Positions 22,099-44,423 of a stretch of DNA of 64,000 nt are shown piece by piece. Below the pieces are notes generated by a model, which saw nothing but the letters and a program-made list of their open reading frames with translations, made no database searches and had not been told where the DNA came from. The translations under genes were made by a program, and so were the position numbers. Positions within the stretch are counted from its first letter, which is position 1; every line of letters begins with the position of its first letter. This DNA comes from an uncultured Actinomycetota bacterium. Lineage in GTDB: Bacteria > Actinomycetota > Thermoleophilia > RBG-16-64-13. The stretch is taken from contig CAWCLH010000020.1 in the NCBI GenBank assembly GCA_963796315.1, positions 1,121,879-1,185,878 of the forward strand, given 5' to 3'.

Positions 22099-22824
22099 TC
22101 AGAAGTCGAAGAACCGATAGCGCGCCAGGTGGGAGGAGAGCCAGGTGAACTGACCGGTCACCATCAGGAGACCGTAGAGGATCAGCAGCGCGCCGGAGAC
22201 GATCCGGATGGCGGTGAAATGCCGCTTGACCCAGCCGAAGGCGCCCATCGCCCGGGTGAAGAAGAGGCCGGAGAGCAGGAAGGGCACGCCTAATCCCAGG
22301 GAATAGGTCAGCAGCAGCAACGCACCGGTCCCGGGATTCCGGCCCGACGCGGCCACCGTGAGGATGGACGCAAGGATCGGCCCGACGCAGGGCGTCCAGC
22401 CGATGGCGAAGGCCAGACCGGCCCCGAACGCACCCACCAGACCTCGAGGGGCACGAAAGGGGAGGGCCCGCCGCTCCCGCTCGAGCACGTTCAGGTGGAC
22501 CACCCCGGTGATCGCCACTCCAAAGAGGATCAGCAGGAGGCCGCCGATGACCTGGAGCGTCCGGCGGTTCTGAAGCACGGCGCCGCCCAGGAACGCCGCT
22601 CCCGCCCCCGCGATGGTGAACATCAGTGAGAACCCGGCGACGAAGGCCAGCGTGGCCAGCATCACCCGCCGGTTCCGCTCCTGCAGGTCACCTACCGAGA
22701 CCCCGGAGACGAAGCTGAGATAGCCGGGGAGCAACGGGAGGACGCAGGGGCTGAGGAAGCTGGCCGCCCCCGCGACGAGCGCGAGGGCAAGGGAAGCCAG
22801 CGAGAGCTCCGGAGAGAGGGTCAC
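22099..22824 (-). CDS. ccdA: Cytochrome c biogenesis thiol-reductant transporter CcdA (DsbD family)
   Basis: 241 aa, polytopic, with FLSPCVLPLLPGY and WTPCVGPILASIL motifs. Confidence 0.9.
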   Translation of the reverse strand: MTLSPELSLASLALALVAGAASFLSPCVLPLLPGYLSFVSGVSVGDLQERNRRVMLATLAFVAGFSLMFTIAGAGAAFLGGAVLQNRRTLQVIGGLLLILFGVAITGVVHLNVLERERRALPFRAPRGLVGAFGAGLAFAIGWTPCVGPILASILTVAASGRNPGTGALLLLTYSLGLGVPFLLSGLFFTRAMGAFGWVKRHFTAIRIVSGALLILYGLLMVTGQFTWLSSHLARYRFFDF

Positions 22825-22839: not shown

Positions 22840-23340
22840 CTAGCGGAGGCCGCTGACGGCGGCGGCCAACTCGGCGGCGGTGGTCGCCCCCACCTTGGTC
22901 TGGGCGATCTTGCCGCCCTTGTCGATGATGATGGCCGTCGGCACTCCCGAGACGCTGTAGTTGCCGGCGATGCCACCGTCCGGGTCGATCAGGACCGGCA
23001 GATCGGTTGCGCCGGACTCCTTCAACAAGGCCTCGACGTTGGAGCGTTGATCCTGGAGCGCCACGAGGAGCATGCCGCTGTCTTGCTGGTGTTCTCGGTA
23101 GAACCTACCGAGTTCCGGGGTCTCGTCCCGGCAGGTGGGTCACCAGGAGGCCCAGAAGACCAGCACGAGGGGCTTGCCCTTGTAGGAGTCCAGGGAGACC
23201 TGCTGGCCGCCCATGGTCATGCCGCTGAAGGCGGCAGCGGACCCCCCCGACGACCCGTTCGCGGTGCCACAGCCGGTGACCGCGACCAGGACGAACAGGA
23301 GGACCAGCAGGACCGCGAGAGCCGGGACAACCCGTTTCAT
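22840..23340 (-). CDS. TlpA/ResA-like thioredoxin-fold lipoprotein with in-frame TGA (23140-23142) in the active site: W-U-P-T-C
   Basis: Two listed ORFs (23140..23340 and 22840..23073) share one frame. Hand translation across the TGA gives ...KPLVLVFWASW-TGA-PTCRDETPELGRFYREHQQDSGMLLVAL..GVPTAIIIDKGG. Lipobox LVAVTGC. 15 nt upstream of ccdA. Confidence 0.8.
23115..23131 (-). promoter_or_regulatory. Candidate SECIS-like hairpin downstream of the UGA in the first TlpA-like gene
   Basis: mRNA CCGGG-ACGAGAC-CCCGG: 5-bp stem with a 7-nt loop, starting 8 nt after the UGA. Confidence 0.4.
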
Positions 23341-24060: not shown

Positions 24061-24064
24061 CCCG

Positions 24065-25131: not shown

Positions 25132-25166
25132 TCCGTCCGCGCGATCCCAAACCACCAGGAGTCGCC

Positions 25167-25829: not shown

Positions 25830-27257
25830 ATGCCTACCACGCACGTTACGGTCGCTCGTCTCGGCGGTGAGCGGAAGCTCTTGGGCTCCGGCTCGTTGGC
25901 CGCCTTGGAGCGGCGCTTAGAAGGCCGGCTTCTTCTCCCCGAGGACCCAGGGTGGTCGGACGCGATCGCCGTCTGGAACGGCATGGTCGCGTCGGCCCCG
26001 GCGCTGGTCGTTCAGCCCGCCACTGCGGCCGACGTGGCCGCGGTCGTCGATCTTGCCCGCCAAGAAGAACTCCTGCTGAGCGTCAAGGGCGGCGGCCATA
26101 ACATCGCCGGCACTTCGGTGGCCGACGGGGCGTTGACCCTGGACATGTCCCGGATGCGGGCCATCTCAGTCGATGCCGGACATCGGGTCGCTCAGGTCGG
26201 GCCCGGATCTCGGCTCGGTGACGTCGACAAAGCTACTCAGGAACACGGTCTGGCGACGGTCTTGGGGTTCGTTTCCGAGACCGGCGTGGCCGGACTGACA
26301 CTGGGCGGCGGCTGGGGCTACTTGACCCGCCGCTTTGGTTGGACGGTGGACAACCTCGAGGAAGTCGAGATCGTGACCGCCGACGGAGAGATCCATACGG
26401 CCAACCGCGAGGAAGACCCCGATCTGCACTGGGCGGTGCGTGGAGGCGGCGGCAACTTCGGCGTGGTGACCCGCTTCCAGTTTCGCCTTCACGAGGTGGG
26501 CCCGATGGTCACCGGCGGACTCATCGCCTGGAGCGCGGAGAGAACGGAGGAGGTTCTCGAGGAATACCGGGAGCTGACCGCGAGCGCTCCCCGGGAGCTG
26601 ACGGCGGCCCTCGTCATCCGCCTCGCGCCGCCGGCGCCCTTCGTGCCAAAGGAGTGGCACGGCAGGCCGATCGTCGGCATGCTGATCTGCTACAGCGGGG
26701 ACGATGCGGATTCGGCGCTCTCTCCGTCTACGAGGTCGGCGACCCCGTGGTGGACGTCGTCGCAACCGCGCCCCTACGCGGTGCAGCAATCGCTACTCGA
26801 CGGCACGGAGCCCGTCGGCCTGCACCGCTACTGGAAGACGGAGTTCCTCCCGGAACTGTCTGATGGTTTCCTCGATGCCTTCCGCGAAGGCGCACTCGAG
26901 GTGAAATCACCGCTGTCTGATTCGGTCATCTTCCACCTGGAAGGAGCCCTCAACGAGCGCCGGAGCGACGACGGGGCGGTCGATAACCGCGACGCCCATT
27001 TCATCGCCGGCTTCTCCGGCACATGGCCGCCGGACGCTCCCGCCGGACCCCACGTCGAATGGGTTCGCCGATCGTGGGAGGGCATCCGCGACTACTCGAC
27101 GGGCGGCAACTACGTGAACTTCCAAGCCGCAGACGACGACGCAGAGCGACTGCGGGCCGGCTACCGGGACAACTTCAGGCGGCTCCAGAAGATAAAGGCC
27201 AAATACGACCCGAAAAACCTGTTTCGGGTGAACCGAAACGTGAGCCCAGCTCGGTAG
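25830..27257 (+). CDS. FAD-linked oxidase (PCMH/BBE type)
   Basis: ATG 25830 follows GGAGGTG. Motifs SVKGGGHNIAG, GLTLGGGWGYLTR, and the BBE-like end KAKYDPKNLFRVNRNV. A short patch at 26715-26770 reads more family-like in another frame (VYEVGDPVVDVV). Confidence 0.8.
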   Translation: MPTTHVTVARLGGERKLLGSGSLAALERRLEGRLLLPEDPGWSDAIAVWNGMVASAPALVVQPATAADVAAVVDLARQEELLLSVKGGGHNIAGTSVADGALTLDMSRMRAISVDAGHRVAQVGPGSRLGDVDKATQEHGLATVLGFVSETGVAGLTLGGGWGYLTRRFGWTVDNLEEVEIVTADGEIHTANREEDPDLHWAVRGGGGNFGVVTRFQFRLHEVGPMVTGGLIAWSAERTEEVLEEYRELTASAPRELTAALVIRLAPPAPFVPKEWHGRPIVGMLICYSGDDADSALSPSTRSATPWWTSSQPRPYAVQQSLLDGTEPVGLHRYWKTEFLPELSDGFLDAFREGALEVKSPLSDSVIFHLEGALNERRSDDGAVDNRDAHFIAGFSGTWPPDAPAGPHVEWVRRSWEGIRDYSTGGNYVNFQAADDDAERLRAGYRDNFRRLQKIKAKYDPKNLFRVNRNVSPAR

Positions 27258-27284
27258 GAGTACTCAGAGGGGGGACGGACCGTC

Positions 27285-27782
27285 GTGAGCCAGTTCCTCG
27301 TCGGCATTTCCGGTGCCATCGTCGGCGTCGTCGGCTGGCTGCTCGTCGGGCTCTACATCCAGAGACGTGCCCATCTCACGAAGGCCCGAGACGCCGGTCG
27401 AGCCGTGTACTTCGAGTTGGCCGCCAATAGGATGACGATCTTCATAGCGGCGGAGTACGCAGTCTTCGGCGACCTTAGCCGCACGACCTACGAGCGTCTC
27501 CTGCCCGAGCTGGCCACTTGGCTGCCGGCCGCGGAACTGCAGGCGCTCGTCCTGGCCTATCTCGGGCATGGTGGCTATCAGCAGGCGTCGAGCGATCCCG
27601 AATTGCCGGCCAACGTGCGGCAGTCGGCCCTCTCGGGCTTACTGGATGCCCACCGCGTCGCCCTGGACCTGTTGCGCCCCCGAGTCTTCTCCGACAAGGA
27701 AGCCGAATCCCTGAATCGCTATGCGGGTGCGGAGTATGTTCGCATGATAGAGGTCGCGGAGGCGGTGGTACCCGAAAAGTGA
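27285..27782 (+). CDS. Hypothetical membrane-anchored protein
   Basis: 165-aa ORF with N-terminal TM LVGISGAIVGVVGWLLVGLYI. No family recognised. Confidence 0.5.
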   Translation: MSQFLVGISGAIVGVVGWLLVGLYIQRRAHLTKARDAGRAVYFELAANRMTIFIAAEYAVFGDLSRTTYERLLPELATWLPAAELQALVLAYLGHGGYQQASSDPELPANVRQSALSGLLDAHRVALDLLRPRVFSDKEAESLNRYAGAEYVRMIEVAEAVVPEK

Positions 27783-27786
27783 GGGG

Positions 27787-28755
27787 GTGGGGGTGAGCGA
27801 TGCCAAGAGCGCAAGCGGCCGGGACGCGGTCCTGCGCTTCTTCGAGATGCTGAATACGGGAGACACCGACCGCCTGGACGAGGTAGCCGACGAAGAGGTA
27901 AGCACCGTGCACCCGCAGACCCGGGAACGCATCTCCGGCCTGGAGGCCAACCTCGAGATGACCCGCGGCTTTCAGCAACTCGGGGGGATCGACATACGCG
28001 AGGAGCGGGAGTTCGTCGGCAGCGGCGGGGAACGCTACCTGCTCACGCCACTCTTCACCATGGTCAAGATCCAAGGCACCGGTGGCCCCTTGGTGGTCAC
28101 CACGAAGATAGGCTATCCGGACGGCTCTGAATGGTACACGACCGGCATCGTGACGTTCCGCCTAGGCAAGATGCTGAAACAGGTGCTCTTCTTTGCGCCG
28201 GAGTTGGAAGCGCCTGACTGGCGCGCCCAATGGGTGGAGACTCTCGAAGCTGAGACCGGTGTCAAGGTGGAGAAGTCCGATGAAGCCGGACCCAGCGGGC
28301 TGAGCCGAGCCGACCGCGACGTGGTAGTGCGCCTGTACGAGCTCATGGATGGGGGCGATTACGAACGTCTCGACGAAGTCTTCCGTACTGACGTCGTGAC
28401 CGAGTACCCACAGTCCGGCGAGCGGGTCAGGGGACTCGAGAACCTCAAGAGCATCATGCGGAACTATCCGGGAGGTCACCCTCGGGTGAGCAAAGCAGAA
28501 CGCGTCCTCGTGGGTGACCGAGGCGAGCATCGGCTGCCCACGACCACCGACTCGACGCTCAAGGTCCACGACGTCGGCGACCGGCTCTTCTCGAGCGTGA
28601 AGACCCGCTACCCCGATGGAAGCGACTGGTACACCGTCTCCCTCTTCGACTTCTCCGAGGGCAAGATCACGAAGCAGGTCGTCTACTTCGCCCCCGTTAT
28701 GCCGGCACCGGAGTGGCGGGCGCGCTGGGTCGTTCCGGAGATCGGCGAGTACTGA
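27787..28755 (+). CDS. Tandem NTF2/SnoaL-like domain protein
   Basis: 322 aa containing two ~150-aa repeats with matching landmarks: RLDEV..ERxxGLEN...YPDGSxWYT...GKxxKQVxxFAPxxxAPxWRAxWV. Confidence 0.5.
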   Translation: MGVSDAKSASGRDAVLRFFEMLNTGDTDRLDEVADEEVSTVHPQTRERISGLEANLEMTRGFQQLGGIDIREEREFVGSGGERYLLTPLFTMVKIQGTGGPLVVTTKIGYPDGSEWYTTGIVTFRLGKMLKQVLFFAPELEAPDWRAQWVETLEAETGVKVEKSDEAGPSGLSRADRDVVVRLYELMDGGDYERLDEVFRTDVVTEYPQSGERVRGLENLKSIMRNYPGGHPRVSKAERVLVGDRGEHRLPTTTDSTLKVHDVGDRLFSSVKTRYPDGSDWYTVSLFDFSEGKITKQVVYFAPVMPAPEWRARWVVPEIGEY

Positions 28756-28866
28756 GATCGCGCCCAGGAGGTAACCGTCCTCGTGGAGCCGTACGGCGAC
28801 CCGGCGGGCATCCTCCGCGTTCGGGGTCCTCGCGCCCCCAATCACAAGTGGCCCTCGCCCAGGCTA

Positions 28867-28883
28867 TACTACTGAACGTAGTA
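28867..28883. promoter_or_regulatory. BlaI-box-like dyad TACTAC-TGAAC-GTAGTA
   Basis: Perfect 6+6 inverted repeat, 112 bp upstream of the response-regulator start (28995). Confidence 0.55.
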
Positions 28884-28994
28884 ACAAGCGCCGGGCGAAG
28901 TACGAGAGGGGTGAGCGCGGGTGACGGACACGGCCACCCAGACGCGGCCCCGCCGTAGCTGAGAGCCCCGACCGCACTCGATCCGGAGCGACCC

Positions 28995-29702
28995 GTGACC
29001 TCCTCTCCCACCTTGCCACCGCACATCCTCGTCGCCGACGACGACGACAACCTTCGCCGGCTCGTGGCCGCGTACCTGCAGCGCGAAGGGTACCGGGTGA
29101 CCGAGGCGGCCGACGGGAACTCGGCCTACCAGCAGGCCGAGTCCGAGCACCCGGACCTGGTGGTCCTGGACGTCATGCTGCCGGGAGCCAGCGGTCTGCA
29201 GATCGCCCGCAAGCTGGGCGGACGCGTCCCTGTGCTCATGCTCACGGCCCTGGGAGAAGAGGGCGACGTGCTGACCGGGTTCGACGCCGGGGCCGACGAC
29301 TACCTGGTCAAGCCCTTCAACCCCAAGGAGCTGGTCGCGCGAGTGCGGGCCATCCTCCGTCGCTCCGGCGCCGATACCGCCGAAGCCGACGAGACCGAAC
29401 GCTCCCTGACCCGGGGCGGTCTGGCCCTCGATCCTCGTTGCCGGGAAGTCACCCTGCGCGGAGCCGTCCTCGAGCTGACCGCCAAGGAGTTCGAGCTTCT
29501 GCGGGCGCTGATGGAGCACCCCGGGTGGGTGTTCAGCCGGGACGAGCTGCTGGAATCGGTTTGGGGCTATCAGATAGCCGGCGAGACGCGGGTGGTGGAC
29601 ACGCACATCGCCAATCTGCGCAAGAAGATCGAGGACGACCCGGCCGAACCTCGCTACATCCGGACGGTCCGAGGCGTCGGGTACAAGTTTCAGGAACCAT
29701 GA
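28995..29702 (+). CDS. OmpR-family response regulator
   Basis: 235 aa with ILVADDDDNLRRL, DLVVLDVMLPG and winged-helix RYIRTVRGVGYKF. Confidence 0.9.
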   Translation: MTSSPTLPPHILVADDDDNLRRLVAAYLQREGYRVTEAADGNSAYQQAESEHPDLVVLDVMLPGASGLQIARKLGGRVPVLMLTALGEEGDVLTGFDAGADDYLVKPFNPKELVARVRAILRRSGADTAEADETERSLTRGGLALDPRCREVTLRGAVLELTAKEFELLRALMEHPGWVFSRDELLESVWGYQIAGETRVVDTHIANLRKKIEDDPAEPRYIRTVRGVGYKFQEP

Positions 29703-30782
29703 GACTTCGCTGGAAACTCTTCCTCACGTACCTCGCGGTGATCGCCGTCATCGTCGGGACCGTCGCGTTGCTGGTCCGAAGCGTGGCCGTAGGCGCGGTC
29801 ACCGGCCACATGGGCGGGTTGGGCGGGATGATGGGGTCCATGCACTCCGATCTGGAGCTCGCCATCGATCGCGGCGTCTCGCAGGCCCTGCTGGTCGCCG
29901 TCGTGGTCGCCGCGGTCGTCGCCGTGGGGGTGAGCTACGTGGTGTCCGGTTGGGTCACCAGGCCCATCCACCGCAGCGCGCAGGCCGCCAGGCGCATCGC
30001 CCGCGGAGAGTACGGGCAGCGGGTGACGGGGGGCTCGGCCGACGAGATCGGCGAGTTCATCGAGGCCTTCAACGAGATGGCCGGAGAGCTCGAGGCGGCG
30101 GAGCAACGGCGGGCGGAGTTGCTCGCCACCATCTCGCACGAGATCCGCACCCCTCTGGCCACCGTCCGCGGCTACATGGACGGTCTGCTCGACGGGGTGG
30201 TGCCGGCCGAGCCCGAGACGTACGTCCTGGTGCGCCGAGAAGCCGACCGCCTCACCCGGCTGGTGGGTGACATCGAGCGCCTCTCGCGCCTGGAGGCCCG
30301 GGCGGAGCCGCTCACCATCACGACCGTCGATATCGCCTCCGTCGCCGAGCAGGTGATCCGCGGGCTGCGGCCGCTGTTCGAGGAGAAAGGGCTGACCCTC
30401 GAGCTCGAGCAGACCTCACCCCGTCCCCTCGTCCAGGCGGATCCGGACAAGGTCATGCAGGTGCTGACCAACCTGCTGACCAACGCCCTGAAGTACACGG
30501 AGAGAGGCGGGGTGGCCATCAAGGTCGAGACGGACGGGCCCGGCTTCGTCCGCGTGACCGCCAGCGACACCGGCGTCGGCATCCCGCCCGACGACCTTCC
30601 CCACGTCTTCGAACGCTTCTACCGGGTGGACAAGTCCCGGTCGAGCGAAGGAGGCGGGGCCGGCATCGGGCTCGCCGTGGTCCGGTCCTTGGTCACCCAG
30701 ATGGGCGGGGAGGTAGCGAATCGACAGTGTGGTCGGCGAGGGGACCACCGCGACGTTCACCCTCCCCCGCAAGCAGGCGTAA
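29699..30782 (+). CDS. HAMP-domain sensor histidine kinase, frameshift near 30719
   Basis: ATG 29699 overlaps the regulator stop. H-box ISHEIRTPLATVRGY. LTNALKYT, DTGVGIPPDDLPHVFERFYRVD, GGAGIGLAVV. After MGGEVA the alternative frame gives IDSVVGEGTTATFTLPRKQA, ending at TAA 30780-30782. Confidence 0.8.
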
Positions 30783-30847
30783 GCCGCAGGCCGTCCACCA
30801 CTCCAGAGGCGACGTCGAACGACCACAGGGACGCGAACAGGAACGGA

Positions 30848-31372
30848 CTAGAGCGTCTGCAGGTACTGCACCAGCGCGCGGACTTCGCTGTCGGTCAGCT
30901 GCCAGAGCGGCATGGGAGCCTTGAGTCTGTCCCCCTCGGGATCGATACCGTCCCTGACCGCGCGAGCGAAGCTCGCTTCATCGAAGGGGGTCTGGGGCTT
31001 GCCCTCGGGGTCCCGAGGCGAGGCCAGAGTGCTCCAACGGATATCGGGCGCGGTGAAACGCCCCATCATCATGTTCACCGTCTGGCCCCGGCCGTCCCGG
31101 CCGTGGCAATCAGCGCAGGCGACGCCTCCGCCCATCATCCCCACCCCGGTGGAGCGTGGGATGGGTCTCCCACTCGCGTCCGTCCCTGTCAGGTAGATGC
31201 GTTCACCGAGTGACCCGTAGGTGCCTTGCCCCGGCGAATGCCAAGGGGAGAAACGGTACAGGGGCCCTCCCGTGGGCAGGGTGAGGGCCAGCAGCACACC
31301 CAAGGCCAGGACGCCGCCGACAATCAGGATGATCCCGGCCGTCAGTGGCCCCCGGCGTCGATAGATGGCCAT
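30848..31372 (-). CDS. Membrane-anchored mono-haem c-type cytochrome
   Basis: 174 aa with an N-terminal TM helix and haem motif CADCHG. Confidence 0.75.
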   Translation of the reverse strand: MAIYRRRGPLTAGIILIVGGVLALGVLLALTLPTGGPLYRFSPWHSPGQGTYGSLGERIYLTGTDASGRPIPRSTGVGMMGGGVACADCHGRDGRGQTVNMMMGRFTAPDIRWSTLASPRDPEGKPQTPFDEASFARAVRDGIDPEGDRLKAPMPLWQLTDSEVRALVQYLQTL

Positions 31373-31381
31373 AGCTCGTTC

Positions 31382-31663
31382 CTATCTCTCCTCCGTCAGG
31401 TCTTGCTTGCGCCGGAGGAACTCTTCCCGATCGATGTCGCCCTTGGCGTAGCGCTCCTCCAGTATCTGCAGCGCACTCGTGGTCGAGGGCGCGGTTGATC
31501 CGGACGATCCAGGGGCCATGGGGTGCGATTCTCCGGCCGATCCGCCACCGCCCCCGATGCCGCGAACCACCAACACCACCCCGACAACGATGGCGGCCAC
31601 GAACAGGAGCGCGAGCACCCAGATGAACACACTGCCCCCGCCACTGTTCCATCCGTCCATCAT
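31382..31663 (-). CDS. SHOCT-domain membrane protein
   Basis: ATG 31663 follows GGAGG. One TM (VFIWVLALLFVAAIVVGVVLVV) and the C-terminal SHOCT-like LQILEERYAKGDIDREEFLRRKQDL. Confidence 0.7.
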   Translation of the reverse strand: MMDGWNSGGGSVFIWVLALLFVAAIVVGVVLVVRGIGGGGGSAGESHPMAPGSSGSTAPSTTSALQILEERYAKGDIDREEFLRRKQDLTEER

Positions 31664-31928
31664 TTCGCCGCCTCCTTGATGGCGTGGCCTCCCGGACGTA
31701 GTGCCTCCCCCGAAAGCAGGTCGGCGCAAACTCGACGTCGAACCGCTCACGTCAGTCGGGTCGACGGCCGACCATCCGACCGAAGCAGTCTCCCAGCCCA
31801 ACGGGCAGCCCTTCACACCACGGACGCCCTGCTTTCTTTGCATGTTCTTCACCTCGCAGAGACACCAACCAGACGAGGACGCCGGAGAATGGTGGTGTCA
31901 GATACGCGACTACCAAGGAGACGACCAC

Positions 31929-32426
31929 GTGAACGACGGACTCAAGCGCGGAGCGGTGATCGCCGCGATAGGCGTTGTCGGCCTACTGGGCATAGCCGCC
32001 GTTACTTCCGGCCCCAACGCGGGCGCAACACCGATCACCAGCGCTGCGGTGGCGCCGTCTCGAGCACAGTCCGCGGAGCTCACCGCGAAGTCGACTGTCG
32101 AGACGACAGCGAGTCCCACGCAACCGGGAGCGACCGATAAGGAGCTGCGCCAGCAGATCGTGGACATGCTCCAAGAGCGCATGGGCCTGTCCGCCAAGGA
32201 GGCCGATCAGCAGGCCGACACGATGGTCCAGCACATGCGCGAGGTCCACGGTAACGAGGCCGGCCAAGTGGCGGCTGCGTGCGGCGATGGTGATGCTCTC
32301 CAGCAAGGCGGGCAGTCTTCGTACGAGGACATGATGGGCGGGGGCACGGGCTCCATGATGGGTTCGTCTACTGGCTCCGTGATGGGCGGCTCCGTCGGCT
32401 CGATGATGGGAAACGATTCGCTGTAG
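31929..32426 (+). CDS. Membrane-anchored protein with a Met/Gly-rich C-terminus
   Basis: In-frame GTG 31929 (the ORF is open from 31701). TM GAVIAAIGVVGLLGIAAV. C-terminus YEDMMGGGTGSMMGSSTGSVMGGSVGSMMGNDSL. Confidence 0.55.
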   Translation: MNDGLKRGAVIAAIGVVGLLGIAAVTSGPNAGATPITSAAVAPSRAQSAELTAKSTVETTASPTQPGATDKELRQQIVDMLQERMGLSAKEADQQADTMVQHMREVHGNEAGQVAAACGDGDALQQGGQSSYEDMMGGGTGSMMGSSTGSVMGGSVGSMMGNDSL

Positions 32427-32436
32427 TCCTCGATAG

Positions 32437-32727
32437 GTGAAGCCTGCCCGGCGAATGAAGAGCCGGGCAGGCTTCCCAGCGCCCCGTCATTGCGCGATCC
32501 GGCCGGGGCGCGGTCGTTTTCTGGGACTCTCGCGGATGTGCACCCACCTGGGCTGCGTCGTCAAGCGGGAGACCAAAGTCGAAGAGTTCCACTGTCCCTG
32601 CCACGCGGGCGTCTTCTCCTCCACCGGGGAGGTGCTGTCTGGTCCGCCGCTTCGCCCCCTACCCCGACTGAAGCTGAGCGTGGAGGGGAACGACATGTGG
32701 GCGGACGGCTGGCAGCCGACGGACTGA
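32437..32727 (+). CDS. Rieske [2Fe-2S] domain ORF (bc/b6f-type motifs), probably N-terminally truncated
   Basis: 96 aa with CTHLGC...CPCHAG. The first ~13 codons are encoded by the terminator-like hairpin, and there is no TM anchor or N-terminal beta strands. Confidence 0.45.
   Translation: MKPARRMKSRAGFPAPRHCAIRPGRGRFLGLSRMCTHLGCVVKRETKVEEFHCPCHAGVFSSTGEVLSGPPLRPLPRLKLSVEGNDMWADGWQPTD
32439..32475. terminator. Perfect 14-bp stem hairpin, no U tract
   Basis: GAAGCCTGCCCGGC-gaatgaaga-GCCGGGCAGGCTTC, starting 13 nt after the stop of the 31929..32426 gene. Confidence 0.5.
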
Positions 32728-32737
32728 CAGGCGTCGG

Positions 32738-33340
32738 CTAACGGGCGGCGGCAGCCAGAGCGACCAGGTCCTCAACGGTAGTGGCCCCGACCTTGGTCGT
32801 GACGATCCTGCCCTGAGCGTCGATCGCCACCGCGGTCGGCACCCCGCTCACGAAGTAGTCGCCGGCGATCGAGCCGGCGGGGTCTTGGAGGATAGGAAGG
32901 TGGTATCCGCCCTCGCGCATGAAGGCTTCCACGTCGGCGCGCGCATCCTGGATATCGATGAGAAGAAGCTGGGCGTCCTGCTTGTGCTCTCGATAGAACC
33001 TATCGAGTGCCGGGGTCTCCCCCCGGCAGGTGGGTCACCAGCTGGCCCAGAAGATCAACAGTAACGGTCTTCCCCGGTACACCTCGAGGGAGACCGGCTT
33101 GCCCTCGAAGGTGATGCCGCTGAAGGTGGGAGCCGCTCGCAGAGCCGAGACGGCCCCGTCACTCGAAGCCGCGCCCTCCTGCGTCCCCGCCGGCCGGCCC
33201 CGGCTCGTCGAGAACCAGAGGCCGAGAACGAGCACCAGCAGCAGGACGGCCGCCGTGATCGCCGCGGTCCCACGAGCGGACGACCGGGGAGCGGCGGTGG
33301 CTCCGTCGGCTTCGCGCTCGTCGCGACCGTCCTCCTGCAT
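32738..33340 (-). CDS. Second TlpA/ResA-like thioredoxin-fold protein with in-frame TGA (33035-33037): W-U-P-T-C
   Basis: ORFs 33035..33388 and 32738..32932 share a frame. Hand translation gives ...RPLLLIFWASW-TGA-PTCRGETPALDRFYREHKQDAQLLLIDIQ..GVPTAVAIDAQG. One TM anchor. ATG 33340 overlaps the ABC ATPase stop (TGATG). Confidence 0.8.
33009..33027 (-). promoter_or_regulatory. Candidate SECIS-like hairpin downstream of the UGA in the second TlpA-like gene
   Basis: mRNA GCCGGGG-GGAGA-CCCCGGC: perfect 7-bp stem with a 5-nt loop, starting 7 nt after the UGA. Confidence 0.5.
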
Positions 33341-34068
33341 CACGGCGCCAGCGCGAACGTCTCCCGACCTTCGCCCGAGAGCTCGCACGCGGCGGGTCGG
33401 TCGTCACAGGTGATGCGGCCGTCGCGGATCTGGATCAAGCGGTCCACGTTGGCGGTGGATTCCGGGTTGTGGGTCACCATGATCACCGCGTGGCCGCGGT
33501 CGGCCAGCTCGCGGAGCAGGATGAGGATCTGCTGCCCGGTCGCCTGGTCCAGGCTGCCCACCGGTTCGTCGGCCAGGATGACGGGCGGGTCGTTCACGAC
33601 CGCGCGGGCGATCGCCACGCGGCCCTGCTCCCCTCCGGAGAGCTCGGAGGGTACGCGCCGGGCCTTCCGCTCGTCCAATCCCACCCGGCAGAGCGTGTCC
33701 AGGGCGCGGTCGGCCTTGCCCGGGTCCTTGAGGATGGCCAACGGCAGCATGACGTTCTCCACCGCGGACAGGTAGGGGATCAGCTCCAGCTGCTGGAACA
33801 CGAACCCGATGTACTCGCGGCGCAGATCCGCCTGACGCTCCTGACTGAGCGCGTAGACGTCGATGCCATCCACCAGCAACCGCCCGGTGGTGGGCGGGTT
33901 CATCGCCCCCAGGATGGAGAGGAGCGTGGTCTTCCCGGACCCGGAGGGACCCATGATGGCGACGTACTCGCCCCGCTCGATATCCAGGCTGACCCGATCC
34001 AAGGCGGTGACCCGGGCTTCGCCTTCCCCGTAGGAGCGGCTCACGTCTTCGATGCGTACCAGGGACAC
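33340..34068 (-). CDS. ABC transporter ATP-binding protein (MacB/LolD type)
   Basis: 242 aa with GPSGSGKTTLLSILG, LSGGEQGRVAIARA and ILADEPVGSLD. Confidence 0.9.
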   Translation of the reverse strand: MSLVRIEDVSRSYGEGEARVTALDRVSLDIERGEYVAIMGPSGSGKTTLLSILGAMNPPTTGRLLVDGIDVYALSQERQADLRREYIGFVFQQLELIPYLSAVENVMLPLAILKDPGKADRALDTLCRVGLDERKARRVPSELSGGEQGRVAIARAVVNDPPVILADEPVGSLDQATGQQILILLRELADRGHAVIMVTHNPESTANVDRLIQIRDGRITCDDRPAACELSGEGRETFALAP

Positions 34069-34081
34069 GTCCTTACCTCCG

Positions 34082-35239
34082 TCAGATGTACTTGAGAGCG
34101 GTCGCCGGGTCCATGTTGGCCGCCCGGCGGGCCGGGTAGAGAGCGGCCAGCATCCCGACCAGGTAGGCCAGCGCGATACCGGCCAGGATCACCAGCGGAT
34201 TGGGCGCCACGGTCAAGGAGAGGCTGGGCACCAGCGACGGCACCACCAGCCCGGCGGCGACGCCGACCAGGATCCCCGTCAGCGCTCCCCCGCCGCTCAG
34301 GAGGGCCGACTCGAGCAGGATGAGCTTTGCGATGTGCCGTTGCTTGTACCCGACGGCGCGGAAGACGCCGATCTCCTTCTGACGTTCCTTCACCGAGGTC
34401 AGCATGGTGATCATCACCACCAACCCTGAGATCAGCACGATCAGTAGGGTGATCGCCAGCCCAAAGCCGGCCAGTGAGGAGTTCGCCCGATTGGTGAACT
34501 CGATGCTCTTCTTCACCGAGACGACGGAGGACCCGGGGATGCTGCGCTCGATCTCTTTGCTCAGGCGGTCGACGGCGGTGGTGCTGGCAGCCGTGACCTC
34601 GATCAGGTTGACCTCGCCCCGGTGTCCGGTGAGCTCGGCGAGCGCGGGCAGGGGCAGGATGACCAGGTTGTCTTCCTCGCCGCCGATCTCCTGCAGCACG
34701 CCGGCGACGGTGAAGCGCCGACCGTCCAGCTCGATCGACTTCCCCGCATCCAGGCCGAGGGTGTTCCGGACGTTGAGGCCCAGCAGCACCTCGTCGGCTG
34801 CCTGGGGCAGCCGGCCTTCCACCCGCCACCAGAGCTTGACCTTGAGGCTCTCCGCCAGGTCGGTGCCCATGGCCAGGAAAGAGCGCTCTCCCACCTTCAC
34901 CGGTTGCAGCAGCACCGGGATGGCGGCGGCGACGTCGGCCTTGGACGGCACCGCCCGGATCCGATCCACGTCGGCCAGCTTCAGGTACCGCACCTCCCCG
35001 GTCCCCGCGCCGCCGACGTCCACCCCGCCGTAGCTCAGGCTGAGCTCGGTCGTCGCCGGGGTGACCACCAGGTTGGAGCCGAACTTGCTCAGCTTGTCGT
35101 CCATGGTGGCCCGAAGGGAGAAGACCAGGGAGAGGACCAGCACGAAAGCGGCCACCGCCACCGAGAGTCCGAGCACGACCAGGACGGCCTTGCCCTTGCG
35201 GCGGCGCAGATTACCGAGGGCGATGGTGCGAAGGTCCAT
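34082..35239 (-). CDS. FtsX-like ABC permease
   Basis: 385 aa with N-terminal IALGNLRRRKGKA, a large periplasmic loop, and a C-terminal 3-TM FtsX domain. Confidence 0.85.
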   Translation of the reverse strand: MDLRTIALGNLRRRKGKAVLVVLGLSVAVAAFVLVLSLVFSLRATMDDKLSKFGSNLVVTPATTELSLSYGGVDVGGAGTGEVRYLKLADVDRIRAVPSKADVAAAIPVLLQPVKVGERSFLAMGTDLAESLKVKLWWRVEGRLPQAADEVLLGLNVRNTLGLDAGKSIELDGRRFTVAGVLQEIGGEEDNLVILPLPALAELTGHRGEVNLIEVTAASTTAVDRLSKEIERSIPGSSVVSVKKSIEFTNRANSSLAGFGLAITLLIVLISGLVVMITMLTSVKERQKEIGVFRAVGYKQRHIAKLILLESALLSGGGALTGILVGVAAGLVVPSLVPSLSLTVAPNPLVILAGIALAYLVGMLAALYPARRAANMDPATALKYI

Positions 35240-35242: not shown

Positions 35243-36400
35243 CTACACCGGCCTCATGGCGAGGGTAGGGCTGAGACGCGCCGCCTGCCAGGCAGGATAG
35301 AGACTGGCCAGCAGGACCACTCCCAGCGAGGCACCCAGCGCGACGCCCAGGCCGGCAGGGCTGGGGGCCAGCGTCTCGCTCACCCCCGCCACCACGCGGG
35401 CCAACGGCCCCGCACCCAGGGTCGCGAGCAGGAGCCCCCCGATCCCCCCCGCGAAGGCCAGCGCCAAATTCTCCACCAGGATGATGGAAAAGATGTGCTT
35501 GCGCCGGTAGCCGATCGCCCGGAAGATGCCGATCTCGCCGCGTCGGTCACGCACCCCTGCCAGCGTCGAGGAGAGCACGATCAGGCAGCCCACCAGGATC
35601 ATCAGCCCGGACAGGACGGCGCTGAACAGACGGAACTGATCGATCAAAAGCCGTCGTGACTCCACGGCTTTCAGCAGGGCTGAGACGCGGGCGGTGGGTA
35701 GAGCGGTCGAGATCTGAGCGTTGATCAGCTCGATGGGGCAGGTGCTGCAGAAGGCGGATACCTCGATCAGGCTGAGCTCGTCACCTCGCTGCCAGAGCCG
35801 CTGGGTGGTGGCCAGATCCAGGTAGAGCAGATCGTCCTCTTGGGTACCGGTCTGCTCCAGCAGACCGGCCACCGTGAAGCGTTCCCCCTTCAGGGTGACC
35901 GTGTCGCCGCTCTTCAACCCGAGCAGAGCCGCGGCTCGACTCCCGACCAGGACGTCGTGGTCCTTCTGGGGGCGTGCTCCATCGATGTGCCACCATTTCT
36001 TCAAGCCCAGCTCTTCTCTCCAGTCGACGCCGGCCGCCAGCACCCGCCGGCCGCCGACCTCGGCAGCCACGATCAACTCCGGGGCGACCCGGTTGATGTT
36101 CTGCTTGTTCTTGATCCCCCGGATCTTGGCGACGTCGGCCAGGTGGAGAGGCGTGACGTCGTAGGTCAGTCCGCCCAGGCTCACGCCCCCGTAGGTCAGG
36201 GGAAGGTCCTTGCTCCGCGGTACCACCACGATGTTCGCGCCGTAGTCGTCCACCTTGTTCGCCAGATCGCGCTCGGCGCTGCGGGTGACCAGGTAGAGCA
36301 CGCTCACGATGCCCACGGTGGCGACGATGACCAGCAGCAGGAGAGCGCTGCGGGACAGGTGCTGGCGCATGTTCCGAAGAGCGATATGCGAGAGACGCAT
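35243..36400 (-). CDS. FtsX-like ABC permease (second copy)
   Basis: ATG 36400 gives MRLSHIALRNMRQHLSRS. Same architecture as the neighbouring permease. Confidence 0.85.
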   Translation of the reverse strand: MRLSHIALRNMRQHLSRSALLLLVIVATVGIVSVLYLVTRSAERDLANKVDDYGANIVVVPRSKDLPLTYGGVSLGGLTYDVTPLHLADVAKIRGIKNKQNINRVAPELIVAAEVGGRRVLAAGVDWREELGLKKWWHIDGARPQKDHDVLVGSRAAALLGLKSGDTVTLKGERFTVAGLLEQTGTQEDDLLYLDLATTQRLWQRGDELSLIEVSAFCSTCPIELINAQISTALPTARVSALLKAVESRRLLIDQFRLFSAVLSGLMILVGCLIVLSSTLAGVRDRRGEIGIFRAIGYRRKHIFSIILVENLALAFAGGIGGLLLATLGAGPLARVVAGVSETLAPSPAGLGVALGASLGVVLLASLYPAWQAARLSPTLAMRPV

Positions 36401-36521
36401 GGAGCGGGCTGTCCTTCCGGGAGCGGGTCCGCCCGGGACGGCCGGCCGACCGGGCACTGCGTGGTGACCCCCGCCTGCGGCCCGCCCAGTGCGGGCCGCA
36501 GGCGTTCAAAGGGTCAGAACG

Positions 36522-37214
36522 CTACTGCCGGGGGGTCCAAGCCTCCAGGTCGGCGGTGGCCACCACGATCTTGCCGTTCTGGTTCTGCGCCTTGATCGGG
36601 TCCGGCGGGAAGTCGGTGCAGCCGCCGGAGATGCCCTGGAGCGTGTTCAGGTCCCACTTGGTGAAACAGGTGTCGCAGACCAGGGTGTTGCCCTCGATGT
36701 GGAAGCTGTTGCTGCGGCAGGGCTCGCAGAACGATGACGCCACCACCAGGTTCCCGCTGGGCGCGACGTACGAGATCAGGGGCAGCTTGCCGCCGGTCAG
36801 ACTCTGCCATTCGCCCGGGAACGGATTGGTCCGCTGGTACTTCATCATGACCAGCTTGCTCTGCTGCACGTCGGCAGCGGAGAAGCTGGCCGAGGTGCCG
36901 CTGACGGCCAGGTCGATCGGCGTCTGGGTGATCGTGCCGCCCGCAGAGCCGCCGGTCGATGAGGCGGTGGTCACGTCGCTGACCTGCACGCCGCTCGAAA
37001 CCTGCTTGCCCGACTGCACCTTCTGGTAGCCCGCCATCCCCAGGAAGGCGACGACCGCGATGGCGGTGACGACGATGATGACCCGCTGCAGGGGGAACTT
37101 GCCCGCCTCCTCGAAGCGTTGCCGCTTGCTATCGAGGTTGTCCAGATGCGCGGGCTGGCTAGTGCGCGGACGGGCGGCCGGAGGCTTCTTCTGCTGACCT
37201 TTGGATCGACTCAC
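36522..37214 (-). CDS. DUF2318-like Cys-rich membrane-anchored protein
   Basis: GTG 37214 follows AAGGGGAGAG. One TM (VIIVVTAIAVVAFLGMAGY). C-terminal domain SSFCEPCRSNSFHIEGNTLVCDTCFTKWDL..GGCTDFPP. Confidence 0.65.
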   Translation of the reverse strand: MSRSKGQQKKPPAARPRTSQPAHLDNLDSKRQRFEEAGKFPLQRVIIVVTAIAVVAFLGMAGYQKVQSGKQVSSGVQVSDVTTASSTGGSAGGTITQTPIDLAVSGTSASFSAADVQQSKLVMMKYQRTNPFPGEWQSLTGGKLPLISYVAPSGNLVVASSFCEPCRSNSFHIEGNTLVCDTCFTKWDLNTLQGISGGCTDFPPDPIKAQNQNGKIVVATADLEAWTPRQ

Positions 37215-37299
37215 GACTCTCCCCTTACTGAGAAGTGACGACTGCTCGCTCAGCCTTCGGGGATTCCTTGTGAAGCTGCCCACGAAGACTGACGGCATT

Positions 37300-37318
37300 C
37301 TACTACGCCACATAGTAG
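37300..37318. promoter_or_regulatory. BlaI-box-like dyad CTACTAC-GCCAC-ATAGTAG
   Basis: 6 of 7 positions pair. Lies 86-104 bp upstream of the DUF2318 start. Confidence 0.5.
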
Positions 37319-37331: not shown

Positions 37332-37350
37332 CTACGACGATTTGTAGTAG
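37332..37350. promoter_or_regulatory. BlaI-box-like dyad CTACGAC-GATTT-GTAGTAG
   Basis: 6 of 7 positions pair. It is the second box of a tandem pair, 32 bp centre to centre from the first. Confidence 0.5.
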
Positions 37351-37369
37351 AGAGAGGGGAGGCGAGGGA

Positions 37370-38396
37370 TCAGTGGGTGTCGCCGGCGGGGAGACGCGTG
37401 ACCGAGTGGGTGCCGTCGTGGCAGGTGTGGGTCGGTGCCTCGCCGGGGAGCGTCACGTCGGTGAAAGCGAGGGCGCTGCCCGTGAAGGCGAACAGGAGGA
37501 CGGTCACCACCAAGACGGTCCCCGACGAGGTACCGCCGTGAGGTGACCGCCACTTGGCCGAACACGAGTCCCCGGATCCGCTCCACGACGTCGCCCTCGT
37601 CGGCGAAAGCCAGGCCGGGCGAGGTGGTGCCGGGAAGCAGGGCGCGGGCGAACTTCTGCAGGCTGGAGGCGACCACGAGCGGGTCTCCGGTCCGCCGCCT
37701 GGCGAAGTCGTCGGCGGCCAGTTCCTGTGCCCGGCGCAACCGGACGACGGCCGGACGGACGCCGGGCAGCAGCGCGAAGGTCGCGACAAAGGTCCGCGCG
37801 ACCAACAGGATCAGGTTGTCCCGAGCGATAAGATGTCCCTCCTCGTGGGCGAAGACCGCCTGCACCTCCTGCTCATCCAAGCCGGACAGCAGACCGGACG
37901 AGATCACGACCCGGGGCCGCAGGGTGCCCATCGTGTACGAACGCGGGACCTCGTCGTCCACCACATAGGTCCGCCCGCGGAGACCGGGAGGCAGCGGACC
38001 TCCGTACAGGACCCCCTCTTCGAGGGCACGGGCCACGTAGCGGGAAGAGGAGTGGACTTGGCTGAGCGCTGCATAGACCGCGACGGCGATCAGCCCGAGA
38101 AGGATCCCCCCCATGAAGAAGGAGAAGGTGGCGTTGGCCCACCCGGGAAGGGCTCGCTGGCAGGCGACGGCGACCTTGCAGACCAGTCCGGTCCGATCGA
38201 GGACGGCATGGGGCAGGTAGCGCAGGAACACCGCGACCAGCAGCAGCAACGTGGCCAGAGCGGCGCCGGAGATGGACGCGAGGTAGGTCAGGACAAGCGC
38301 GCGGGGAGCCAGCCGAGACTCCAGGAACCGGCGGACCAGCCAGGGCCCGGCCAGCAGGAGGGCGTAGGTCAGCGCGAGGGTCAGGCCGACGATGAC
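37370..38396 (-). CDS. M56-family (BlaR1-like) membrane metalloprotease without a penicillin-binding sensor domain; frameshift at the C run 37520-37523; start unresolved
   Basis: HEEGH zinc motif in QAVFAHEEGHLIARDN. After SRRYLVG the alternative frame gives TM TVLVVTVLLFAFTGSALAF and the tail TDVTLPGEAPTHTCHDGTHSVTRLPAGDTH (stop 37370-37372). TM1-like coding (VIVGLTLALTYALLLAGPWLV) extends to ~38396 with no in-frame ATG/GTG/TTG. Confidence 0.7.
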
Positions 38397-38812
38397 TCCC
38401 GCTCCTGGCGCATCTGCTGGATGATGTCGGCGAGGACGTCGAGTTGGCCCGCATCCTCGTTGGTGAGACTCTCCACGAAGTGAGTGAGGACCGGCCGGTT
38501 GACCGAACCGAACAGCCCGCTGACGACGGTCTTGACCACTCCGGTACAGAAGGCGTCTCGAGTCTGCACCGGCTCGTAGATGTAGGCCCGGCCTTCCTGA
38601 CGGCGGCGCAGCAGCGCTTTCTCCGCCAAGCGACTCATCACGGTCATCACCGTGGTGTAGGCGATCTCACGCCGTTCCAGCAGGCACTCGTGCACCTCCC
38701 GGACCGACGCCGATCCGAGATCCCACATGCACTCCATGATCTCGGCCTCCAGGTCGCCGAGGACCTGCCTCAGCCCCTGGCTCCCGATATTCAGGCTCAA
38801 CGGTTCGTCCAT
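38381..38812 (-). CDS. blaI: BlaI/MecI/CopY-family winged-helix repressor
   Basis: ATG 38812 follows AGGAGG. LGDLEAEIMECMWDLGSASVREVHECLLERREIAYTTVMTVMSRLAEKALLRRRQEGRAYIYEP. No C-terminal CxC copper motif. Confidence 0.85.
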   Translation of the reverse strand: MDEPLSLNIGSQGLRQVLGDLEAEIMECMWDLGSASVREVHECLLERREIAYTTVMTVMSRLAEKALLRRRQEGRAYIYEPVQTRDAFCTGVVKTVVSGLFGSVNRPVLTHFVESLTNEDAGQLDVLADIIQQMRQERESSSA

Positions 38813-38841
38813 GCAGGTCCCTCCTGGTGCGACGGCACGCA

Positions 38842-38858
38842 TACTACCAAACGTAGTA
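38842..38858. promoter_or_regulatory. BlaI-box-like dyad TACTAC-CAAAC-GTAGTA (probable autoregulatory site)
   Basis: Perfect 6+6 inverted repeat, 30-46 bp upstream of the blaI-like start codon. Confidence 0.6.
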
Positions 38859-39084: not shown

Positions 39085-39831
39085 CTATCGCATCAGGTGT
39101 TGATGACGAAGACGCTCGATCCTTGAGGTCAGATCCATCTGGCGGTAGCGCACGATCAAGAGGTACGCGTAGACGAGCGTGATGGCGAACAGCGAGAACA
39201 TCAGCACGAGCGTCATCCGCGAATCCAGGTTGATGGCGTTCTCGGTGATGACGGTGGGGTGGATGGTCCGCCACCAACGCACCGACATGAAGACGATGGG
39301 TACGTCCACCCACCCCACGATGCCGAAGACCGCCGCCACCCGGGCCGTCTTGTGCCCGGGCTGCGACGCGGACCGCAGCATGAGGTAGGCCACGTAGATG
39401 AACCACAGCACCAGGGTGGTGGTCAGACGCGGGTCCCACGTCCAGTAGGCGCCCCAGATGGGCCGGGCCCACAGGGGACCGGTGATCAGGGTGACGGTGG
39501 TGAAGACGACGCCGATCTCGGCCGACGCGGCCGCGATCCGGTCGTAGCGCAGGTCCTTCTTGATCAGGTAGAGGATGCTCGCGATGAACACCACCGTGAA
39601 GGAGGGCCCCAGGGCGACCCAGGCGCTGGGGACGTGGAAGTAGAAGATGCGCTGCACGTCGCCCATCTGGGCCTCGGTCGGCGCGTAGAGCAGCGCCCCG
39701 TAGAGGGCGATGACGACGGACACCAGGGCCGCGACGCCCAGAGCGTCCAGCCAGAGTGAGCCGCCGGTGAGGCCGCGGGTCCCGGTCGAGGGCAGGCCGC
39801 GGTCGAGGGTCTGGTCGTGTGCCATGCTCAT
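39085..39831 (-). CDS. ccmC: Haem exporter protein CcmC
   Basis: 248 aa with the WWD motif WGAYWTWDPRLTTTLVLW. Confidence 0.9.
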   Translation of the reverse strand: MSMAHDQTLDRGLPSTGTRGLTGGSLWLDALGVAALVSVVIALYGALLYAPTEAQMGDVQRIFYFHVPSAWVALGPSFTVVFIASILYLIKKDLRYDRIAAASAEIGVVFTTVTLITGPLWARPIWGAYWTWDPRLTTTLVLWFIYVAYLMLRSASQPGHKTARVAAVFGIVGWVDVPIVFMSVRWWRTIHPTVITENAINLDSRMTLVLMFSLFAITLVYAYLLIVRYRQMDLTSRIERLRHQHLMR

Positions 39832-41264: not shown

Positions 41265-41266
41265 GG

Positions 41267-41879: not shown

Positions 41880-41922
41880 GGTCGTTCGTCTCCTCGGTCT
41901 CGCCGTCGCGGACGCCTGGGTC

Positions 41923-42430: not shown

Positions 42431-44423
<1,993 letters not shown>

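Follow-up and report, generated by a model that had tools for sequence, protein, structure and literature searches.

A TlpA-like gene interrupted by an in-frame TGA

The gene analyzed here, referred to as Sec-TlpA2, is located on the minus strand of a 64,000-nucleotide stretch of DNA of an uncultured Actinomycetota bacterium (the window) and encodes a TlpA/ResA-like thioredoxin-fold protein whose reading frame is interrupted by a TGA, probably decoded as selenocysteine (Sec). The open reading frame (ORF) extends from ATG (33340-33338) to TAG (32740-32738), comprises 200 codons and contains a single internal in-frame TGA in the context FWASW-TGA-PTCR. The TGA is followed by 98 codons, in which the G+C content at third codon positions (GC3) stays high (0.81). 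With the TGA taken as a residue the product reads MQEDG...LLLIFWASW-U-PTCRGETPALDRFYREH...AAAR and carries the redox motif WUPTC and a cis-Pro loop GVPT. The protein matched the Pfam families AhpC-TSA (9e-20, 71 bits, cut-off 26) and Redoxin (6e-19, 69 bits, cut-off 26.6), both matches spanning the TGA. The best solved relatives were ResA (4nmu, 3.5e-18) and StoA (3erw), and in both of them, as in nine Cys-form homologues, it is the first Cys of WCxxC that aligns with the U. A first-pass annotation of this DNA had proposed a Sec-containing TlpA gene with the W-TGA-PTCR context, and the alignment of the UGA with the Cys of WCxxC, kept in relatives, bears this out.

Sec-TlpA2 had also been described as the paralogue of a first copy, here called Sec-TlpA1. 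The two proteins indeed demonstrate 54 % amino-acid identity and a common FWASW-U-PTCR context (FWASWUPTCRDETPELGRFYREHQQD in Sec-TlpA1, FWASWUPTCRGETPALDRFYREHKQD in Sec-TlpA2). The nucleotide identity is 88.9 % from the UGA through the second of two downstream hairpins (HP2, following HP1) and 62–71 % in the flanks. The proposed difference in anchoring is visible in the translations: the N-terminus of Sec-TlpA2 contains one hydrophobic helix, AAITAAVLLLVLVLGLWF, with no N-terminal Cys and no lipobox, whereas Sec-TlpA1 has the lipobox VTG-C. When the window was scanned for TGA-interrupted ORFs of high GC3, 22 candidates were obtained, of which, judged by eye on translations and positions, only Sec-TlpA1 looked genuine, Sec-TlpA2 itself lying under the GC3 filter of the scan. 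The features of the locus are collected in Table 1.

Table 1. Features of the Sec-TlpA2 locus and of the associated genes in the window
Feature	Position	Strand	Basis
Sec-TlpA2 gene, TlpA/ResA-like thioredoxin fold	32738..33340	-	translation, Pfam, solved relatives
UGA, putative Sec codon, first (nucleophilic) position of W-U-P-T-C	33035..33037	-	alignment to Cys homologues
N-terminal transmembrane anchor	33212..33265	-	read from translation
HP1, (U)GCCGGGG-GGAGA-CCCCGGC(A), nt +10..+30 from U of UGA	33008..33028	-	RNA fold
HP2, CUCGAUAG-GUU-CUAUCGAG, nt +31..+49, over codons L-D-R-F-Y-R-E	32989..33007	-	fold, resampling, covariation
Sec-TlpA1, lipoprotein paralogue	22840..23340 (23340->22840)	-	TGA 23142-23140
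Sec-TlpA1 HP1	23115-23131	-	RNA fold
Sec-TlpA1 HP2, CUCGGUAG-GUU-CUACCGAG	23094-23112	-	RNA fold
CcdA/DsbD-type membrane electron conduit, next gene 3' of Sec-TlpA1	22099..22824	-	ORF, NCBIfam DsbD-type matches
ABC ATPase (MacB/LolD-like)	33340..34068	-	Pfam ABC_tran 8e-34, NCBIfam MacB/LolD-like
Two MacB-type FtsX permeases	34082-35239, 35243-36457	-	Pfam MacB_PCD and FtsX in both
FtrD-like (DUF2318) membrane protein, opens the operon proper	36522..37313	-	PF10080 2.3e-18
BlaR1-like M48/M56 peptidase	37332-38249	-	Pfam
BlaI/CopY-family repressor	38381-38842	-	Pfam
System I cytochrome c maturation cluster ccmE-F-H-A-B-C	39085-45057	-	Pfam

Conservation of the TGA in related genes

Genomes, one per species, were scanned for the pattern F-W-A-x-W-TGA-P-x-C, which gave at least 120 loci; among the matches listed, all but three run on in frame for about 75–120 codons. 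A metagenome scan with a narrower TGA-context pattern gave at least 120 further loci. Taken together, at least 240 loci with WxxW-TGA-PxC, nearly all with about 100 more in-frame codons, agree with the earlier proposal that the TGA is not a chance stop. The loci of the genome scan belong to Acidimicrobiia (sponge symbionts among them), Rokubacteria/Methylomirabilota, Dehalococcoidia, Geobacteraceae, Nitrospirota, Planctomycetota and further groups. The closest relatives were grouped by the protein motif LDRFYR (L001, L142/L239, L232, L161, L149, L225/L235 and L242-L247). The TGA is kept in L001, L142, L149, L161, L225, L232 and L242-L247, and several members of this subfamily carry other UxxC motifs, namely UGSC, UPIC, UGYC and UPSC.

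A database search with the full-length protein, U replaced by C, returned only three weak matches, the suspected cause being a low-complexity N-terminus that crowds the 8000 scored word-sharing candidates. A full HMMER search of the representative library with the 98 residues after the TGA was informative instead. Every match of more than 50 % identity was a short fragment of 58–96 aa, and the full-length Cys forms did not exceed 46 % identity to this C-terminal part. Eight matches that are shorter than 100 aa or that align from residue 2 of their own sequence were retrieved; all of them resemble C-terminal fragments of genes that had been split, and an in-frame TGA was found just upstream of the fragment in all five contigs fetched (P0031, P0039, P0052, P0054 and P0078). 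In the near-identical L001 copy the gene callers split the gene into products of 101 and 73 aa. The TGA and its context are clearly conserved beyond chance.

Standard gene callers split or truncate Sec-TlpA1 and Sec-TlpA2, and they do the same to hundreds of related genes from Acidimicrobiia, Rokubacteria/Methylomirabilota, Dehalococcoidia, Geobacteraceae and the genomes of sponge symbionts; an extracytoplasmic redox enzyme is therefore missing from the affected proteomes.

The annotation of two pieces by automatic callers is also what would be expected if the TGA were a true stop, of a pseudogene or of the first of two separate small genes, and a look for Sec machinery in the 64-kb window gave nothing. 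This explanation is nevertheless extremely improbable. A split would cut the thioredoxin fold within the active-site motif, the TGA stands exactly at the position of the catalytic Cys, both diverged paralogues and every relative have it, and the coding signature and the homology run past it. A conserved hairpin of the type of a Sec insertion sequence (SECIS) lies 3' of the TGA, and no start codon follows directly. Orthologs existing as two separate genes, which would have spoken for a stop, were not seen; the TGA lies inside one thioredoxin-fold ORF that the callers split. A reassigned genetic code was rejected as well: TGA terminates ordinary genes of the window, such as the ABC ATPase gene and many ORFs, so the code is not reassigned.

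A tRNA(Sec)-like tRNA(Cys) is reportedly known from work of Mukai and colleagues. If such a tRNA acted here, the UGA would still be recoded via SelB and SECIS, but to cysteine, and Sec-TlpA2 would be an ordinary CxxC TlpA protein. The RNA signals would be the same for Sec and Cys, and nothing found tells them apart. The alternative is very unlikely all the same: it is without positive evidence, no tRNA gene is present in the 64-kb window, and the family is catalogued among UxxC selenoproteins (PMC13188914). Selenoproteome surveys list both a UxxC 'Prx-like thiol:disulfide oxidoreductase' (PF00578) and ResA/TlpA-like selenoproteins (PMC13188914). Sec-TlpA2 therefore adds a member to a kind of selenoprotein that is already known.

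Two hairpins downstream of the UGA

The bacterial SECIS (bSECIS) model of bSECISearch comprises an apical loop of 3–9 nt on a stem of 4–16 bp, a G at one of the first two loop positions (in most cases with G or U after it), a distance of 16–37 nt from UGA to the loop and a minimum free energy (MFE) of -7.5 kcal/mol or lower (as summarised in PMC13188914). RNA folding predicted two adjacent stem-loops after the UGA in both copies, HP1 and, directly following it, HP2.

The first-pass annotation had recognized only HP1 and described it accurately: in Sec-TlpA2 the TGA is followed by 7 nt, CCCACCT, and then by GCCGGGG-GGAGA-CCCCGGC, which RNAfold extends by a U-A pair to 8 bp. It had further taken this hairpin, placed over the CR(D/G)ETP codons, for the conserved recoding element, and here the data point elsewhere. 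In relatives the HP1 stem varies between 4 and 8 bp and occurs in three registers with differing loop sequences. Its loop starts 13–14 nt after the UGA (14 in Sec-TlpA2), below the bSECIS minimum of 16 nt, and the loop of Sec-TlpA1, ACGAGAC, carries no G at either of its two initial positions.

The stability of both hairpins was compared with 2000 synonymous recodings, drawn under the codon usage of the window, for each of 11 sequences. For HP1 the P values were 0.0135 in Sec-TlpA2, 0.10 in Sec-TlpA1 and 0.04–0.78 over the relatives (overall median about 0.1), and in 9 of the 11 sequences HP1 was not significantly more stable than its recodings. Most of the stability of HP1 thus follows from the amino-acid sequence, and with the protein fixed it exceeds chance only weakly.

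HP2 behaved differently. Its 19-mer, CUCGAUAGGUUCUAUCGAG, can be drawn with 8 bp and the triloop GUU or, equally well, with 7 bp and the loop GGUUC. Only two copies of the motif are present in the window, each 27 nt downstream of an in-frame TGA, and by chance none would be expected. The Sec-TlpA1 version differs from that of Sec-TlpA2 by one compensatory change, from A-U to G-C. The 19-mer is identical at the nucleotide level in 13 related loci, and the sole change among the LDRFYR relatives is U-A to U-G, in L149/L225. In the second L246 paralogue the closing G-C is replaced by A-U (AAG UUU instead of AGG UUC). All differences among close relatives thus preserve pairing.

Codon alignment demonstrated that the L-D-R-F codons of HP2 never vary, whereas Leu, Gly, Pro and Ser codons at other fully conserved sites show synonymous differences in 20–28 of 36 sequence pairs. 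The codons that make up HP2 (CTC GAT AGG TTC TAT CGA) account for 28, 19, 6, 94, 12 and 8 % of the respective usage in the window, so that GAT, AGG, TAT and CGA are rare. In the resampling, none of 2000 recodings reached the observed stability of HP2 in any of the 11 sequences; its MFE was -9.5 to -11.5 kcal/mol compared with a mean of about -3 for the synonymous resamples. None of the nine Cys-form homologues has a hairpin of this type, and this holds also for L248, the closest of them (45 % identity).

RNAalifold applied to 12 subfamily sequences recovered HP2 only, with no consensus for HP1, whose column-wise covariation could not be counted because HP1 shifts register. Covariation of the hairpin across orthologs, which had been suggested as a check, is seen for HP2 in its pair-preserving changes. 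The shared RFYRE protein motif pointed out earlier is present in both copies, but its codons in fact form the second hairpin, the element that is actually conserved. The invariance, codon choice and stability of HP2 give evidence that it is under selection at the RNA level, and HP2 is the probable SelB-binding element, or SECIS core, of Sec-TlpA2. An intrinsic terminator was considered for HP2 and rejected, no U-run being present 3' of it. The earlier interpretation holds for the gene, but the hairpin that it singled out is probably not the decisive one.

Comparison with the bacterial SECIS model and the wider family

HP2 agrees with the bSECIS model in its small apical loop starting with G-U (GUU), its stem of 7–8 bp, a UGA-to-loop spacing of 35 nt and an MFE of -9.5/-11.5 kcal/mol. 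The SECIS loop of E. coli fdhF is GGUC, and HP2 read as A-GGUUC-U resembles it. There are also differences: in Sec-TlpA2 the spacer is occupied by a hairpin of its own, the HP2 loop starts 35 nt from the UGA instead of 18 as in fdhF, and the whole HP2 19-mer is invariant within the subfamily. No relevant Rfam match was found for the hairpins at either gathering or permissive thresholds.

Loops of the (N)G[G/U] type were located in 202 distinct sequences of the family. They start at +16–20 in 107 sequences, at +21–30 in 29 and at +36–40 in 12, the last group being the class of Sec-TlpA1 and Sec-TlpA2. The loops AGUUG/AGUUA, with starts at +17–20, account for 108 cases. Three position classes were distinguished: AGUUG/AGUUA at +17–24 in the 'REELP' type of Rokubacteria/Methylomirabilota, GGUC at about +29–32 in the 'REAPAVA' type of Acidimicrobiia, and GUU at about +39–41, behind a first hairpin, in Actinomycetota. 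A single loop of the G-U type is thus found per class, and in the class of Sec-TlpA2 it is the one on HP2.

The layout of two hairpins, with other HP2 stems, was found in seven more sequences (L023, L034, L049, L057, L071, L103 and L107), and those of them named to taxon are all Actinomycetota. The relatives with this layout suggest that the window, too, belongs to Actinomycetota. In an alignment of 14 sequences (A1), 92 % of the HP2 cells were paired compared with 25–45 % when the partner was slid, a percentage inflated by the choice of 7 of the 14 sequences for pairing at the HP2 register. The covariation between subfamilies is not affected by this selection: both sides change in 5 of the 8 HP2 pairs, and none of 500 shuffles reached the observed score.

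That HP1 (over the C-R-G-E-T-P codons) is the SECIS, with HP2 incidental or serving another role, has several observations in its favour. In Sec-TlpA2 HP1 has an 8-bp G+C-rich stem and a GGAGA loop. A hairpin with the Glu codon GAR in the loop is found at +12..+30 in all 12 subfamily sequences despite their differing sequence. Of the 11 resampling P values 8 lie between 0.01 and 0.13, and Fisher's method applied to all 11 gives about 0.001, with related sequences treated as independent. This assignment is still considered unlikely. No significant extra stability was seen in 9 of 11 sequences, the loop sequence, stem length (4–8 bp) and register are variable with no RNAalifold consensus, and the nucleotide invariance of HP2 would be left unexplained. 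The loop start of HP1 and, in Sec-TlpA1, the absence of G from the first two loop positions disagree with the bSECIS model (PMC13188914). HP1 would be at most an accessory element.

Besides the selection of sequences in A1, several points weigh against the assignment of HP2 as the SECIS of a functional selenoprotein gene. The loop of HP2, starting 35 nt after the UGA, is near the upper limit of the model. A stem spacing of 11 nt is reportedly required in E. coli according to Liu et al. 1998, and HP2 lies far beyond it. In most of the wider Sec-TlpA family the usual site of the single G[G/U]-loop hairpin (AGUUG/AGUUA, +17–20) is the one taken by HP1, which could therefore be the element at work. 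None of selA, selB, selC and selD was seen in the 64-kb window by ARAGORN, Rfam and Pfam (the last on about 50 ORFs), and the Sec competence of the host is presumed. Finally, the function of Sec-TlpA2 is deduced from gene order, and its NCBIfam scores are far below the cut-offs (ResA 78 vs 170, StoA 75 vs 210, DsbE 56 vs 123, TlpA 49 vs 230, and 39 vs 300 for the WAxxUGC ResA-like selenoprotein).

With both sides taken into account, 32738-33340 is probably a functional selenoprotein gene for a membrane-anchored extracytoplasmic thiol:disulfide oxidoreductase, with HP2 as the main recruiter of SelB. SelB carrying Sec-tRNA(Sec) would be recruited mainly by the apical loop of HP2 (+31..+49). Folding of HP1 would reduce the unpaired stretch from the UGA to HP2 to about 8–11 nt, a distance similar to the 11 nt of E. 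coli, and HP2, 27 nt downstream, could reach the mRNA entrance of the ribosome with the UGA in the A site.

A broader generalization is put forward tentatively, with somewhat less than even confidence: a set of Actinomycetota (Acidimicrobiia, Nitriliruptoria/Euzebyaceae and relatives) may use a two-hairpin SECIS in which the distal hairpin carries the G-U loop at about 35 nt and the proximal one is a folded spacer, and their selenoprotein may be the CcmG-type reductase missing from a System I ccm cluster, wired to CcdA and a FetABCD-like ABC module. If true, this would be a distinct bSECIS class relaxing the rule on UGA-to-hairpin distance. The subfamily constitutes a natural experiment in that a 19-nt hairpin located 27 nt downstream of the UGA is invariant and the hairpin in between is variable, and it allows direct tests of how distance and spacer govern SECIS recognition in bacteria.

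The catalogued UxxC Prx-like (PF00578) and ResA/TlpA-like selenoproteins share with Sec-TlpA2 the AhpC-TSA/Redoxin fold, Sec in the first position of the redox motif, a coding-region stem-loop 3' of the UGA and the splitting of the gene by callers (PMC13188914). The Sec-TlpA subfamily differs from them in the context FWASW-U-P-T-C-R..LDRFYR, in a conserved hairpin that is located 27 nt 3' of the UGA and is preceded by a variable one, and in being embedded in a ccm/FtrD-FtsX-ABC/ccdA block.

Unusual arrangements of Sec-TlpA genes were observed among the scanned loci. Two tandem Sec-TlpA genes are present in L246 (3638-6698), the first with an extension of about 550 aa past the thioredoxin domain that contains SLH and TIG domains. 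Three tandem genes for FWAEW-U-PxC TlpA-like selenoproteins were found in the sponge-associated metagenome-assembled genomes (RHO bins) L100 (3846-5832) and L102 (5619-7647). In L007, L032, L165 and L189 the motif FWASW-U-PTCGPQ occurs in large proteins with more than 460 codons upstream of the TGA, and the Sec-TlpA domain forms the C-terminal end of a much longer ORF.

Genomic context and predicted function

Sec-TlpA2 closes a DUF2318-FtsX-FtsX-ABC operon, as first proposed and as the Pfam matches of the upstream genes demonstrate. It is coupled to the ABC ATPase gene by TGATG, also noted at first reading: the stop TGA of the ATPase gene (33342-33340) shares its A with the ATG of Sec-TlpA2 (..GTGATGCAG..). 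No YHS domain was detected by Pfam in the FtrD-like protein. The minus-strand order of the region is CcmE, CcmF, CcmH, CcmA, CcmB, CcmC, BlaI, BlaR1-like M48/M56 peptidase, FtrD-like protein, FtsX, FtsX, ABC and Sec-TlpA2, followed by about 9.4 kb of unrelated genes and then by Sec-TlpA1, CcdA, FdhD and a hexapeptide transferase. ccmG/dsbE was not found in the ccm cluster of the window, the only nearby TlpA-like genes being the two Sec-containing ones. A ccdA gene adjoins Sec-TlpA1, and none adjoins Sec-TlpA2.

Relatives provide a simpler picture. In L235, L225 and L247 there is a single Sec-TlpA gene and no intervening unrelated block. The order in L235 is CcmE-F-H-A-B-C-BlaI-M56-FtsX-FtsX-ABC-SecTlpA-CcdA, with no FtrD-like gene detectable. 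L225 has the FtsX-ABC-SecTlpA-CcdA part and continues into FdhD, and L247 has BlaI-M56-FtrD-FtsX-FtsX-ABC-SecTlpA-CcdA-FdhD. The BlaI-BlaR1-like order upstream of the operon is the same in L235 and L247. Directly 3' of Sec-TlpA, a gene with Pfam DsbD_TM is present in L242 and L247, and a tblastn match to the CcdA of the window in L161, L225 and L235.

Because these relatives have a single Sec-TlpA gene and lack the unrelated block, the window would carry, in duplicated and split form, the ancestral block ccmEFHABC-blaI-blaR1-like-(ftrD)-ftsX-ftsX-ABC-SecTlpA-ccdA-fdhD. The 9.4-kb block (23341-32737), lying exactly between the paralogues, has the appearance of an insertion or a rearrangement by which the TlpA gene came to be duplicated on either side. 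It encodes Asp23, an FAD/BBE oxidase, SnoaL, a two-component system (response regulator and histidine kinase), a cytochrome c and a Rieske protein.

The absence of ccmG from the ccm cluster, ResA and StoA as best relatives and CcdA as the usual neighbour are the reasons why the sequence data point to Sec-TlpA being a reductase of the CcmG/ResA type that acts outside the cytoplasm and is fed by CcdA. The U-x-x-C centre would be kept reduced by electrons delivered via CcdA and would in turn reduce an extracytoplasmic partner. The candidate partners are the CXXCH sites of apocytochromes c, in a CcmG/ResA-like role beside the ccm cluster without ccmG, and/or a component of the FtrD-like/FtsX/ABC module, in a role like that of FetE/FetF. 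Sec-TlpA resembles the CcdA- or DsbD-fed proteins ResA (Bacillus), CcmG/DsbE and TlpA in its best structure matches, its membrane or lipid anchor, the adjacent ccdA (at Sec-TlpA1 and at the single copy of relatives) and its location on the same strand downstream of ccmEFHABC. It differs from them in that Sec replaces Cys and in its NCBIfam scores.

The FetABCDEF system of Campylobacter jejuni consists of a DUF2318 protein (FetA), two FtsX-type proteins (FetB and FetC), an ATPase (FetD) and two thioredoxins (FetE and FetF) (PMC6083913, PMC10783030), the last two supporting the Fet module (PMC10783030). The window has the same components in the same order: a DUF2318/FtrD-like protein, two FtsX-type permeases, an ABC ATPase and a membrane-associated thioredoxin-fold protein. 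Its operon contains, however, one thioredoxin-like gene instead of two, with UxxC instead of CxxC, and lacks a detected YHS domain in the FtrD-like protein; a BlaI/BlaR1-like pair lies upstream in the window and ccdA downstream in relatives.

Sec-TlpA2 could accordingly serve the FtrD-like/FtsX/ABC module alone, like FetE/FetF, with no role in cytochrome c maturation. The FtrD-like-FtsX-FtsX-ABC-Trx linkage is conserved, the genes are translationally coupled, and the gene order is that of fetABCDEF in C. jejuni, a system that depends on its thioredoxins (PMC10783030). This restricted role seems somewhat unlikely, since Ftr1/P19 (FetM/FetP) was not found among the approximately 50 window ORFs scanned, since L235, with no detectable FtrD-like gene, keeps Sec-TlpA beside ccdA and downstream of ccmEFHABC without ccmG, and since the best solved relatives are ResA and StoA. 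The physiological interest lies in a putative selenoprotein linked to cytochrome c maturation, CcdA and the poorly understood FtrD-like/FtsX/ABC (FetABCD-type) module.

Several other genes were recorded on the minus strand of the window. The FdhD gene (20953-21864) lies 3' of ccdA, and a molybdopterin oxidoreductase ORF with Fe4S4, Molybdopterin and Molydop_binding domains and no in-frame TGA reaches the edge of the window (61787-64000). An envelope redox cluster at 47456-52991 encodes Lgt, a TPR CcmH/CycH-like protein, a second CcmH, a thioredoxin and a 627-aa fusion of a pyridine-nucleotide-disulfide oxidoreductase with Thioredoxin_3. The replicative helicase DnaB (10502-12352) contains an intein (Pfam Intein_splicing, residues 415–549).

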